Origin: a virus
Lineage: Duplodnaviria; Caudoviricetes
Strand: one strand, 5' to 3'
Length of the DNA stretch: 60,530 nucleotides
Virus record (IMG/VR): IMGVR_UViG_3300042938_000567
Span: 1 to 60,530 of that record
A program made the translations under genes and the position numbers. Under the pieces are notes generated by a model, which ran no database searches, was not told the origin of the DNA, and saw only the letters and a list, made by a program, of their open reading frames with translations. This document shows positions 1 through 60,380 of this stretch, one piece after another; position 1 is the stretch's first letter, and each line of letters starts with the position of its first letter.

Positions 1-127
1 TAAACCTCTCCATAAATTGCTGGTGTTCCACCATTGGAATTCATGGAAACATAAGTTTCAAAATTCCAATTCCCAGATGGAATATTTATTGCATTAGGAT
101 CATTAGCAATTGTAGCAAACGAACCAA
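1..127. repeat. 127-bp exact direct repeat of 53674-53800
   Basis: Base-by-base identity up to position 127; first mismatch at 128 (C) vs 53801 (T). Confidence 0.95.
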
Positions 128-884
128 CCAATTGTGTTCCTGCACCAGTTGCTGTTAATGTCGTTCCAACCCCAATAACAAGGTTGCGATTCATTTCATA
201 ATATCCAAGGATACTTGAAGATGAAGATGGGTTAAAATAATAGACAGCACCAGAACTAAATCCTTGAGGCCCTTGTAATCCAGTAGCCCCTGTCGCTCCA
301 GTGTCTCCTGTGGCCCCTGTCGCTCCTCTAACCCCAGTCAAGCCAGTGGCTCCTGTAGCTCCTGTGGCTCCGAGATCACCCGTTGCGCCAGTCGCTCCAA
401 CGTCTCCTTGGATGCCAGTTGCTCCTGTAGCTCCGACATCTCCTTGAATCCCAGTAGCTCCAGTGGAACCCGTAGCTCCGTCAGTTCCAGCTACACCAGT
501 GGCTCCCGTGGCTCCAGTCGAGCCATCTGTTCCAGCTATGCCAGTTGCGCCTGTCGAACCAGTAGCTCCATCTACTCCAGAAATCCCAGTGCTTCCAGTT
601 GCGCCTGTGCTGCCATCAATTCCAGCTACCCCAGTAGCCCCTGTTGCGCCTGTTGATCCATTGCTACCACTCAATCCAGTAGCCCCTGTCGAACCAGTAG
701 AACCATTGATTCCACTCAATCCTGTAGCTCCTGTCGCGCCAGTCACGCCCGTGCTTCCAGTCGCGCCCGTGCTTCCAGTCGGGCCTCCAGATGGGCCTGT
801 GGCCCCAGTAGCCCCAATCGCTGCGCTAGATTGACTTCCTGTGAAGTCAAGCGTACCAGTAAATGGGTTAAATGTGAGTGCCAT
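1..884 (-). CDS. Collagen-like (G-X-Y) fibre protein, copy A, runs off window start
   Basis: Starts [14 protein letters not shown] at 884 followed by GATG repeats; paralogue of 53226-54746; stays in frame if position 1 is joined to 53673. Confidence 0.85.
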
Positions 885-916
885 AGTTTATTATTAATCG
901 TTGAATTGCGTTTTTG

Positions 917-1132
917 TCAAGCGGTTATCTCAGGCTCAATAGGCCAATGCAACCCTTCTTTGGCTATCTGTGCTTCACACTCTTGTTGGGTTCCAACAAA
1001 CAATGTGCCTCCAGTTGCGATTGACTGATCTGTCTGTTCGTAAAACACTATTAGTTTATCGTGATATACTAATTTCCAATTCCCTACAGAAGCGTCATAC
1101 GACCAGCCATTTTCGTCAGGTGGGATTATCAT
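917..1132 (-). CDS. Small virion-cassette protein (paralogue of 54779-54994)
   Basis: 71-aa ORF conserved in both cassettes; ATGA overlap with the upstream gene. Confidence 0.75.
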   Translation of the reverse strand: MIIPPDENGWSYDASVGNWKLVYHDKLIVFYEQTDQSIATGGTLFVGTQQECEAQIAKEGLHWPIEPEITA

Positions 1133-2004
1133 GGGACTGTTACTGCGAGAGTTGAGGTTGCTGAAGTGTAAGTTGCCGTTGTTCCTACTGGAACGCCTGT
1201 TAAGCTAATTACTCCCGGCGCGTAGGACTGAACAGTTGTTCCTTGGAAAAATCGAAAATTGGTTGTTGTTGCTGCTGGAGGAGAAACATTGAAAGCAACC
1301 GCCAAACTTGCATTTTGAAAAGTAGCTGTTGCTGTGGAAGCTCCAACAGTTTTTATAGTTCTGAGAAACCCTGCGGTGATTCCTGTAGACCCCGTATAGC
1401 TTAAAGTTCCGTTTAGGTGGAGTCTGCCAGTAGATGTTTTGCTAATACTTCCACTACCAGCGATTGAGCCGGGAATTGTTAATGTGATAGTTCCAGAAGC
1501 AACGCGGAATTGCAGAGAGTTACCAGTATTTATTTGAAAATTATTAGTCAGCGTTGACGTTGCGTTGCAAACTATTTGCGATGGGCCTGCTGAGGTGAAT
1601 AACCCAGTTCCAAAAGCATTGTTTTGCGAAAATGGAATTGTTCCTGTTGCCGCAGATGGTGCAGATAATGTTCCTCCCGAATAGGTATTGCTACCTCCAA
1701 TGGTTAAAGCTGTTGTTCCAGTCTTTGTAAGTGATCCTGCCCCGCTAATAACTCCATTCAAAGTCGATGCGCTTGAAATTGCAATTTGACCAGCATTGAT
1801 TTGGGTAGGCCCAGTATAGTTGCATACTCCAGAGAGCGTCAGTCCACCAATTCCGTTCTTTATTAAGCCAGTTGTTCCAGAAATTGCTGCTGAAATTGTT
1901 GTGCTTACATAGCACATGAAATGACGGAACGATGCCGTTGAAGATGCAATTGCATTTACATTGCTTACACCTACTTTTGCTGCGTTGGAATTAGTTAAAA
2001 TCAT
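1129..2004 (-). CDS. Autotransporter passenger-associated (PATR) beta-strand repeat protein, likely fibre component
   Basis: Repeats such as GSLTKTGTTALTIGGSNTYSGGT and GSISKTSTGRLHLNGTLSYTGST. Confidence 0.75.
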   Translation of the reverse strand: MILTNSNAAKVGVSNVNAIASSTASFRHFMCYVSTTISAAISGTTGLIKNGIGGLTLSGVCNYTGPTQINAGQIAISSASTLNGVISGAGSLTKTGTTALTIGGSNTYSGGTLSAPSAATGTIPFSQNNAFGTGLFTSAGPSQIVCNATSTLTNNFQINTGNSLQFRVASGTITLTIPGSIAGSGSISKTSTGRLHLNGTLSYTGSTGITAGFLRTIKTVGASTATATFQNASLAVAFNVSPPAATTTNFRFFQGTTVQSYAPGVISLTGVPVGTTATYTSATSTLAVTVP

Positions 2005-2588
2005 CCTACAATTATGTAAACTGTGTTAGAATTAATACCTGCTCCAAGTGCGTTGTACCCAGCTAATGTGATTTGCATCATGTTAGTCAAGGCAGTTGCT
2101 CCTGTTGCTCCGCTAATATTGCTACCAATCTTGCCGTTTAGAGCGGTCTGCGTAGCGGTTGAAATTGGTTTATTATCATCCGAGGTGTTGTCGCAATTGC
2201 CAAGACCAACATCAGTCTGGTCGATTGTAACTGCACCAGTTCTTGTATTAACTGAGGTTACTCCCGCGACACTTCCAGTAATGTCACTCAGCGTAGCTAT
2301 AGTACCAGATGCACTAGGTAGAACGAAAGTCTTTGTAGCACCTCCTGCCGTTATGGTGAGGTCGCTATTGTTTTGCAGTTCTAAGACCTGACTGCTATCA
2401 GGAGAATAAAGTTCGTCGTGCGAATGCACAGACATACCACCAATTTCTTGGATTGCACCCGTAGATGGATGCTTGGCATAGAGTTTTTTATCGGCGTGAT
2501 TTATGCAAATCTCACCAGCTGCAAGATCGGAACTCTGCGGAATTTTTGAGATAACCGATTTTTTAGGGACTATGATTGGATTAGCCAT
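2001..2588 (-). CDS. Fibre/adaptor protein
   Basis: N-terminal LAAGEICINHADKKLY domain, VTSVNTRTGAV and DVGLGNCDNTSDDNKPISTATQ fibre motifs, C-terminal NTVYIIVG. Confidence 0.7.
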   Translation of the reverse strand: MANPIIVPKKSVISKIPQSSDLAAGEICINHADKKLYAKHPSTGAIQEIGGMSVHSHDELYSPDSSQVLELQNNSDLTITAGGATKTFVLPSASGTIATLSDITGSVAGVTSVNTRTGAVTIDQTDVGLGNCDNTSDDNKPISTATQTALNGKIGSNISGATGATALTNMMQITLAGYNALGAGINSNTVYIIVG

Positions 2589-2646
2589 TATGGAATGGGG
2601 TTGCCTCCAGAGGGGTTGAACCTCTGAAGGGCTTGGGGTTTAGGGA

Positions 2647-58852: not shown

Positions 58853-58853
58853 A

Positions 58854-59117
58854 CTATGCTATGCTGACCATTACTAAATTTGCGTCATTTACAGTAGGAG
58901 GCTGCACGGAATATGTCAATGTAAGAGTAGCGACAACAACAGATGCTTTGCTGTAAGCTACAGTTGCGATATTGTTCGACGAACCATAGTAAGTCAATGC
59001 AAGTGAATCGAATTCTGGGATTTGAAACCCCTGAACAGAGTATGCAATGTTTGAAATCCCATCTAGAGCAAGGTGACGGAATTTTGCGGTGTCGAGAATT
59101 GAAGGGATATCGTCCAT
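58854..59117 (-). CDS. Small virion protein
   Basis: C-terminal part paralogous to 3492-3767; N-terminus differs. Confidence 0.7.
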   Translation of the reverse strand: MDDIPSILDTAKFRHLALDGISNIAYSVQGFQIPEFDSLALTYYGSSNNIATVAYSKASVVVATLTLTYSVQPPTVNDANLVMVSIA

Positions 59118-59140
59118 ATGTGTGAATGTTAAACTGATGA

Positions 59141-59172
59141 GGTGGCAGAGTCAAGTTATTAACTCTGCCACC
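59141..59172 (-). terminator. Hairpin downstream of capsid gene B
   Basis: GGTGGCAGAGT...ACTCTGCCACC. Confidence 0.6.
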
Positions 59173-59186
59173 GATATCAATTTAAC

Positions 59187-60380
59187 TTAAACCGCTACGC
59201 AAGGTGCTGGATTCACATCATCTTGGCAACGCTTGTAGACAATTGCCACAACATTCTGTGGACGAATTGGCTGAATAGCTCGTTGGATTTGATAGATGTG
59301 CTGACCGAAGTCACCATACAAGTTACAATCGTTGTCGCGGAAGTATGTCCACTCCAGTTCACCCATAGCGAGTTGGGGAGCGAAACGGAATGTTCCTTCA
59401 CCAACGTAGCTTTCGGGGACGAGACGCTTGAACGCATTGCCAGCAATAACGAACATGACTTCGTACGTTGCGGCAACCCATGCTGGGTTACGGCGTTGAG
59501 CGAAACCATTCGTTACGGCAGTCGAGACGATTGGGTTAACAAGGGTAAGAACACCAGCGACATTCGCGGTAGCGCGAAGGGGCTGTTGGTCGATACCGAA
59601 TGCGAAACCACGATAACCTTGGAAGGAGTAACCAGAAATGGCAGTCTCACCAAGTTTGAACGAACCAGTCGTAAGACCGATCAGATCTTCCTTAACGTCC
59701 GCATCGTTTCTGAAATTTTCGATCTGGTCAGCAGAAGCGATAACTTGGAAGAATTCACCCTCAGAGGTAGCGAATGGTTCAGCAAGCATCTCTTCACGCA
59801 GGAACGTGCCGAGTTTGTAGAGAGTCCTGAAGTTCATAGGAGCATCAGGAACTTTGTTGGCAAACAGGGTGTTGATCTGCTGCATATCACCAGTCAAGTT
59901 AGCAGAGAATGTAGCAGTGGAATCCACTACATATTTAATGCCAGACTGAAGGAGATACTGATAGCGGATGTCAGCGTTGATCAACTGAAGGATCGTCTTT
60001 TCGAGCGATACTTGAGCTTGTAGGTAAGAACCTTTAAATGCTGTGCGAGCTTGCTTTACGCAAACACGGGGGCCAGCACCACGAAGGGTCTGAAGTTGGA
60101 ACTGATACTCAGTCGAGCCAACAACGTCAGGGGTTGCACCGATTCCACAGAGGGTCGTGTCGTTAACGAAGGTAGGAGCAGCGAGTGAAGCGGCAGGGAC
60201 TGCCATTTCCTCAACTACGCTACGAACAACGTCCGATACGTTTGGAAGGGTTCCACCATCGATGCTGTTGATGTAAGGACTTTTACGAGCGAGAACCCGC
60301 CCGATTTGTCCGATGATACGATTCACGTCTTTAGACGCAAAATCTTGGATTGCTGCTAGTGAAATACATTCTTGAGCCAT
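59187..60380 (-). CDS. Major capsid protein, copy B (397 aa)
   Basis: Same position relative to the cassette as copy A; shared motifs G..(E/S)Y.F.L, (I/V)CV, R..Y..QSG.K and G..EW....CN. Confidence 0.75.
   Translation of the reverse strand: MAQECISLAAIQDFASKDVNRIIGQIGRVLARKSPYINSIDGGTLPNVSDVVRSVVEEMAVPAASLAAPTFVNDTTLCGIGATPDVVGSTEYQFQLQTLRGAGPRVCVKQARTAFKGSYLQAQVSLEKTILQLINADIRYQYLLQSGIKYVVDSTATFSANLTGDMQQINTLFANKVPDAPMNFRTLYKLGTFLREEMLAEPFATSEGEFFQVIASADQIENFRNDADVKEDLIGLTTGSFKLGETAISGYSFQGYRGFAFGIDQQPLRATANVAGVLTLVNPIVSTAVTNGFAQRRNPAWVAATYEVMFVIAGNAFKRLVPESYVGEGTFRFAPQLAMGELEWTYFRDNDCNLYGDFGQHIYQIQRAIQPIRPQNVVAIVYKRCQDDVNPAPCVAV

Follow-up and report, generated by a model that had tools for sequence, protein, structure and literature searches.

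The IMG/VR virus record IMGVR_UViG_3300042938_000567 (Duplodnaviria; Caudoviricetes), which we analysed over its complete length of 60,530 nt and call the window below, has two genes for major capsid proteins (MCPs): MCP1 of 470 aa (4787-6199, minus strand) and MCP2 of 397 aa (59187-60380, minus strand). Taken at face value, such a record would point to a phage equipped with two alternative heads, which would be remarkable if true. On the whole, the evidence leads us to conclude, with a probability of about 0.87, that the two-capsid record is an assembly chimera of two lake phages joined at a shared stretch of tail-fibre sequence. The record would then consist of a complete genome of one lineage, here called lineage A (1-53,673), and a 6.7-kb spur (53,801-60,530) from a co-occurring phage of a second lineage, lineage B; each phage would have one capsid gene, and a virion with two would not be implied. 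The record contains no N characters, is classed as linear, and is given a completeness of 100% by CheckV with no contamination flag. As a chimera it would go unflagged by end-repeat checks and CheckV, which call it linear and 100% complete.

The path that we propose through the assembly graph, a lasso, is as follows. Where a collagen-like tail-fibre gene encodes its C-terminal part, the two phages would have 221 nt in common but for a single mismatch, and in a de Bruijn graph of k = 127 the lineage-A and lineage-B paths would merge at this stretch. The assembler would have entered by the lineage-B branch, which carries MCP2, an 87-aa protein and the second of two fibre cassettes (60,530 to 53,801), and would then have made one round of the lineage-A circle (53,800 down to 128) and halted at the repeated 127-mer. 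A path halting there would begin the record with the 127-mer and with the fibre gene of the first cassette cut. We infer for this that the assembler used k = 127 and that both phages came from one sample.

A 127-nt repeat and a probable genome-sized circle

The longest exact repeat between the record ends measures 127 nt: positions 1-127, from the very first base, are an exact copy of 53674-53800, a repeat missed in the first-pass annotation of this DNA. The internal copy lies inside the collagen-like fibre gene 53226-54746 and is the proposed junction between lineage A and lineage B, and the terminal copy is the proposed graph node that closes the lineage-A circle. The repeat ends at a mismatch (C at 128, T at 53801), after which 93 further bases are identical. 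The largest default k of metaSPAdes is 127. Since the second copy is internal, end-repeat detectors call the record linear, and the foreign branch stays attached. The final 127 nt occur nowhere else in the record; this counts against a closed tandem genome, for which a further copy would be expected.

For comparison of the end repeats, five relatives were fetched whole (G001, G003, G006, G007 and G010). Among them, G003 and G007 each begin and end with the same stretch of exactly 127 nt, and no 127-nt end repeat is found in G001 and G010. In G006, the genome behind locus L098, which is classed as linear, the last 127 nt recur at 64-190; judged by its sequence, this record is a second lasso, namely a circular path with a 63-nt spur. 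The 71.4-kb lineage-B record G010 (behind L142), which is about 9 kb longer than its relatives, carries divergent (67-69%) homologous copies at its two ends (3963-8307 against 66602-70966, and 1816-2614 against 62411-63203), and may be another wrap-around chimera. The signature of a lasso, a contig end that recurs internally for exactly k bases, is easily screened for, and it seems to be recurrent in this phage group.

The circle that the repeat would close has the size and the content of a lineage-A genome. Window positions 1-53,430 are colinear with the lineage-A genome G001 (52,972 nt), the colinearity crossing the ends of G001, and nearly all genes in 1-53,673 are 75-100% identical to those of G001. 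By our reading, 1-53673 goes once round a lineage-A genome that, in its assembled form, is either circular or terminally redundant. The single cassette of G001 (5959-11565) aligns to both cassettes of the window. Ten complete lineage-A records were compared in size: eight measure 52,644-55,073 nt, a range that includes the circle length of 53,673 nt, and two measure 58,120 and 60,125 nt. These two, G012 (behind L080; 58,120 nt) and G011 (behind L058; 60,125 nt), are longer than the usual 53-55 kb and have no MCP2-type gene. With closure at 53,673, about 5.2 kb separate MCP1 from the first lysis gene behind it, and in 43 lineage-A loci this spacing has a median of 5,198 nt and a maximum of 8,477 nt; a tandem genome would have a spacing of at least 12 kb, above that maximum. 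In addition, the reading frame of the cut fibre gene of cassette 1 continues, by frame arithmetic, in frame into 53,673 and downward.

The remaining part, the 6.7-kb spur (53801-60530), carries MCP2, the 87-aa protein, a fibre cassette and, of the collagen-like fibre, the N-terminal two thirds. In lineage-B records MCP2 has counterparts of 98-99% identity, and the last 150 nt of the window align to the lineage-B region upstream of MCP2. The window beyond 58853 has no lineage-A counterpart. A k-mer-overlap lasso is recognised by an end-touching repeat bounded by a variant, by the same overlap in relatives and by a circle of genome size, and as far as the sequences go all three are found here.

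Two lineages with one capsid type each

Relatives of the two capsid proteins were present in 214 IMG/VR stretches for MCP1 and 193 for MCP2, and the best 80 loci of each were kept, 160 in all. The first-pass annotation had proposed to look in IMG/VR for genomes carrying both capsid types, and the outcome is negative: not one of the 160 loci has both types within 10 kb on either side, and none of 20 complete records does. Ten complete lineage-A records (52.6-60.1 kb) have no MCP2-type gene, and ten lineage-B records (61.7-71.4 kb) have no MCP1-type gene. Cross-type hits in these 20 records reach 10-13 bits only and, at the three places where this could be checked (G007, G017 and G018), lie inside the resident capsid gene.

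The loci show two gene orders. In lineage-A loci, those of the MCP1 type, TerL is followed by the 129-aa gene and the portal, and these by the 83-aa gene, the scaffold and MCP1; behind MCP1 lie genes of 204, 87 and 91 aa, a single variable fibre cassette and the lysis genes. All 31 lineage-A loci with at least 9 kb downstream pass from MCP1 through one cassette to the lysis genes without MCP2. Lineage-B loci, those of the MCP2 type, have their own TerL and portal, then MCP2, an 87-aa gene, one variable fibre cassette and the lysis genes. The sequence upstream of MCP2 extends for at least 2.5 kb in 67 lineage-B loci. In 58 of these, genes of 200 and 336 aa stand directly before MCP2, the remaining nine have no detectable match there, and a fibre gene stands there in none. 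The MCP2-type records are of 61-66 kb (one of 71 kb), are rated 98-100% complete, and have their own TerL and portal. Between the lineages, TerL and portal are 20-23% identical, and TerL, portal and MCP taken together 20-25%.

The coordinates and lengths that the first-pass annotation gave for the two capsid genes of the window are correct, and its count of one portal, one scaffold and one TerL also holds for the window, the scaffold being putative and assigned by position. Structural genes are nearly all on the minus strand of the record. In transcription order, the left end reads portal, 83-aa gene, putative scaffold, MCP1, genes of 204, 87 and 91 aa, and then cassette 1, which runs off base 1. 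The right end reads MCP2 (150 nt from the record end), the 87-aa gene, cassette 2, two small membrane proteins, the 180-aa protein and tail-spike-like genes. The head module of lineage A (6531-12799, mixed strands) comprises the putative scaffold (6531-7814, minus strand), the 83-aa gene, the portal (8066-10510, minus strand), the 129-aa gene and TerL (10949-12799, plus strand). The assignment of the portal and the putative scaffold follows from their position and from synteny, which is conserved across lineage A, and that of TerL from a match to PHROG phrog_2 (E = 2.2e-9).

The two capsid proteins had been described as sharing only scattered motifs. The similarity is indeed weak, with 21% identity over 370 columns in BLASTP (E = 0.001), but the alignment is real and spans the proteins from end to end, and the profile-profile comparison of the two families by hhalign gives a probability of 98.5% (E = 3e-15, 347 columns). 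An HK97 fold in both proteins, which the first-pass annotation had set as a test of its idea, is borne out by AlphaFold2 and Foldseek. The model of MCP1 has a mean predicted local distance difference test score (pLDDT) of 85.6 and that of MCP2 of 87.7, and the top Foldseek match of both is the N4 capsid 9e99_A with probability 1.00 (E = 3.8e-10 for MCP1 and 1.2e-11 for MCP2). At E <= 0.001, 247 PDB chains are matched by MCP1 and 309 by MCP2, and the lower matches of both include many HK97-fold capsids, HK97 itself among these. On these models and alignments, MCP1 and MCP2 are real, homologous HK97-fold capsid proteins, MCP1 of lineage A and MCP2 of lineage B.

Their positions among the neighbouring genes are in accordance with this. 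All lineage-A loci with enough flank have portal, 83-aa gene, scaffold and MCP1 in this order, the scaffold by position only. In the lineage-B genome G007 the order is TerL, portal, a 424-aa frame, the 336-aa gene, the 200-aa gene and MCP2, where the 424-aa frame is taken as the scaffold by position only. A Cys-rich tail at the C-terminus and insertions of about 70 aa set MCP1 apart. A 477-aa frame on the plus strand (4751-6184) is antisense to MCP1 and is probably no gene.

Reference collections do not recognise these proteins. Neither MCP1 nor MCP2 has a Pfam or PHROG match, no Pfam match at E <= 0.01 is found among 86 aligned members of the capsid family, and neither protein passes the Pfam model of the N4 gp56-like family PF25209 (Phage_capsid_4). 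Clusters with the labels N4-gp56 family, PF25209 and PF13252 are among the language-model neighbours of MCP2. A profile search of 1.84 billion representatives finds 403 relatives of the capsid family at E <= 0.001, and the homologue search with MCP2 gives 706 matches, of which the 120 listed are all at least 87% identical. A tblastn search of MCP1, MCP2 and TerL against 50,697 GenBank phage records gives no match. Both lake-phage lineages, which are abundant, thus have HK97-fold capsid proteins that go unrecognised by Pfam and PHROGs.

Fibre cassettes, lysis genes and other parts of the record

Fibre cassette 1 (3-3264, minus strand) consists of genes for 205, 195, 291 (with PATR repeats) and 71 aa and of a collagen-like fibre gene truncated where the record ends. 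Fibre cassette 2 (53226-58622, minus strand) has genes for 223, 325, 212 (Laminin_G_3), 176, 287 and 71 aa and a collagen-like fibre of 506 aa. Seven genes had been counted as shared between the two ends, some as nearly identical; we find six pairs (91/87, 205/223, 195/325, 291/287, 71/71 and the collagen-like 294/506 aa), and their identities are lower, at 79-82% for the DNA of the cassettes and 84, 80, 79, 75, 63 and 56% for the proteins, the last figure being for the C-terminal 59 aa only. The homology of the 195/325-aa pair is confined to the N-terminal 165 aa, and the 294 aa of the collagen-like fibre in cassette 1 are what the contig end leaves, against 506 aa in cassette 2. Exact stretches between the cassettes are of 127, 95 and 93 nt. 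Partners are missing for the 204-aa and 87-aa genes before cassette 1 and for the 212-aa Laminin_G_3 and 176-aa genes of cassette 2.

The cassettes had been labelled as decoration or head-fibre genes, and this label is not supported. Cassette proteins match tail-fibre PHROGs (collagen-like tail fibres and minor tail proteins) and Pfam Collagen, a Phage_tail_C match lies just below the Pfam cut-off (22.8 against 23.7 bits), and Mtd_N matches the 205-aa protein below threshold (21.1 bits, cut-off 26.3). On the PHROG and Pfam matches we set the head-decoration reading aside in favour of probable tail fibres; a receptor-binding module appears more likely than head decoration. Two different fibre genes in each cassette open with an N-terminal motif 'MANPI...' (2647-3264 and 2001-2588 in cassette 1; 57951-58622 and 56915-57892 in cassette 2; all on the minus strand), which may be a shared virion-attachment domain. 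The 176-aa frame (55851-56381, minus strand), which has a TTG start as listed, overlaps the 212-aa Laminin_G_3 gene (56275-56913, minus strand) by 107 nt, and its true start is probably further downstream.

The small conserved protein that adjoins each cassette occurs in a lineage-A form of 91 aa (3492-3767, minus strand), the last lineage-specific gene before the exchangeable fibre genes, and a lineage-B form of 87 aa (58854-59117, minus strand), and phrog_26903 matches both forms. A swapped N-terminus had been claimed for it, which is roughly right, the lineage-specific part being the N-terminal 29 residues. In 37 lineage-A and 38 lineage-B distinct copies, these residues are 18% identical between the lineages and 63-72% within them, and the remainder is 58% identical between the lineages. 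Such an N-terminus would fit either an adaptor or a recombination boundary.

The putative lysis genes (52169-53239, minus strand), which follow the single cassette in both lineages, encode membrane proteins of 64 and 78 aa and a 180-aa protein. A lysis role would be in keeping with their position and hydrophobic sequence; the sole PHROG match of the 180-aa protein is phrog_3000, of unknown function.

Cassette genes and lysis genes are far more alike across the lineages than TerL, portal and MCP. Genes of cassette 1 recur in lineage-B records, the 195-aa gene with up to 96% identity (L138 and L142) and the 205-aa gene with 89-90% (L100 and L110), and those of cassette 2 recur in the lineage-A record G001 with 81-92%; the lysis genes reach 90-95% across lineages. 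Against the window, the lineage-B genomes otherwise have distant homologues, a helicase of 41-43% identity and three genes of 61-78%. On these comparisons, tail-fibre and lysis modules pass between two lake-phage lineages that are otherwise deeply diverged, as in ordinary phage mosaicism. The first-pass annotation had offered as its second alternative a fibre cassette moving between distant phages, and it is this part that stands, given the high cassette identity against 20-25% for TerL, portal and MCP. The 221-nt shared stretch with its one mismatch, in cassettes otherwise about 80% identical, suggests recent recombination.

Outside these regions, a few genes deserve mention. A 1,879-aa protein of the tail region (32084-37723, minus strand) matches neither Pfam nor PHROGs; G001 has it with 75% identity, and by tblastn it is absent from lineage B. 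Tail-spike-like proteins (45286-50869, minus strand) match phrog_13768 (E = 2e-38), phrog_14558 and others, and no other part of the genome varies as much; at the DNA level this part has no match in G001. A group-1 glycosyltransferase (19736-20848, plus strand; Pfam Glycos_transf_1, E = 6e-15) has counterparts of 70-72% identity in the Synechococcus myophages S-CAM7 and ACG-2014f and is 78% identical in lineage B, and 51 of the 53 GenBank phage records that it matches are Synechococcus phages. This gene hints at a picocyanobacterial host or at gene flow with cyanophages.

Alternative readings and comparison with known systems

Several points weigh against an assembly chimera. The chimeric join is inferred from graph topology and comparison and not from reads, and the record data name neither the assembler nor its k. 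The 24 sequencing runs listed for the window are lake-water or metagenome runs, all in the form of Logan contigs. An exact 40-nt pattern specific to cassette 1 (window 211-250) has no match in the public viral and metagenome contig collections searched, and no public contig was found there that has cassette 1 and extends beyond base 1. No lineage-B record is near-identical over the whole spur, where the best identity per 250-nt bin is 77-98%. The lineage-A records of 60,125 and 58,120 nt make a longer lineage-A genome possible on size alone. Identity to relatives does not place the junction of the two lineages: in neither lineage is there a near-identical record over the cassette, where the best values in 250-nt bins are 67-98% and some bins have no coverage, so the junction is placed by the 127-mer alone.

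The foremost alternative is that the record is correct, and that a lineage-A phage captured the lineage-B MCP2, the 87-aa protein and a second cassette in tandem, to give a genome of at least 61 kb whose assembly broke at the repeat. Two capsid genes 21-25% identical could then build alternative shells or mixed virions. The CheckV rating, complete at 100% with no contamination flag, agrees with this, recombination between the lineages in this region is clear, lineage-A genomes of 58-60 kb exist in two records, and repeats of at least 127 nt within one genome would halt an assembler of k = 127 at the same point. What makes it unlikely in our view is the absence of both capsid types together from all 160 loci and all 20 complete records, the spacing of at least 12 kb from MCP1 to the lysis genes against an 8.5-kb maximum in 43 lineage-A loci, and the need for about 7 kb (13%) beyond the usual lineage-A genome. 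The right end, moreover, is free of repeats, and the record breaks off there, 150 nt upstream of MCP2, in intergenic sequence like that of lineage B. The idea of one phage with two alternative head modules, the other alternative of the first-pass annotation, is therefore not upheld, given the 127-nt repeat at the end, the relative with a single cassette, and the counts of 0 in 160 loci and 0 in 20 records.

Two further readings we regard as very improbable. MCP1 and MCP2 might be hexamer and penton paralogues in one shell, as gp23 and gp24 of T4, a pair with a similar level of identity, and they are homologous HK97-fold proteins of 21-25% identity; such a pair would be expected to co-occur in relatives, of which 0 of 20 complete records and 0 of 160 loci give an example, and MCP2 in lineage B follows its own portal and the 424-aa frame in the scaffold position, and we rule the pair out by the mutual exclusion of the capsid types. 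A capsid-encoding satellite using the fibres of a helper phage, also suggested by the first-pass annotation, would fit a spur without its own portal or terminase within the window, but is dismissed since the MCP2-type records are complete phages of 61-66 kb (one of 71 kb) with their own TerL and portal, and in G007 a gene in the scaffold position, and not small elements.

An assembly chimera, our preferred reading, has its closest counterpart in the circular-path contigs of SPAdes and metaSPAdes with a k-mer overlap of 127 nt, among them the lasso contigs that arise from mixed strains. The likeness lies in the exact 127-nt repeat at the record end and in the 127-nt direct terminal repeats of relatives; the difference is that the second copy here is internal, 6.7 kb from the other end. 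One report describes a SPAdes phage assembly with 127-bp terminal repeats that were removed as redundancy (PMC8104045).

Among known capsids, the N4 capsid protein (PDB 9e99 and 9lbz) is the top structural match of both MCP models, although the identity of MCP1 and MCP2 to it is 10-12% and the template modelling scores are moderate (0.44-0.53). The record resembles T4 gp23/gp24 in having two HK97-fold homologues about 21-25% identical, and differs in that MCP1 and MCP2 are never together in 20 complete relatives. The mosaic exchange of tail-fibre and lysis modules between unrelated phages of one host is the established modular view of phage evolution. The two lineages are like such mosaics in having fibre and lysis genes 80-96% identical across lineages with TerL, portal and MCP of 20-25%. 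They differ in that the cassette lies between the capsid gene, which it directly follows, and the lysis genes, and in that its upstream boundary lies within or just after the 87/91-aa protein, with an N-terminus that goes with the head lineage.

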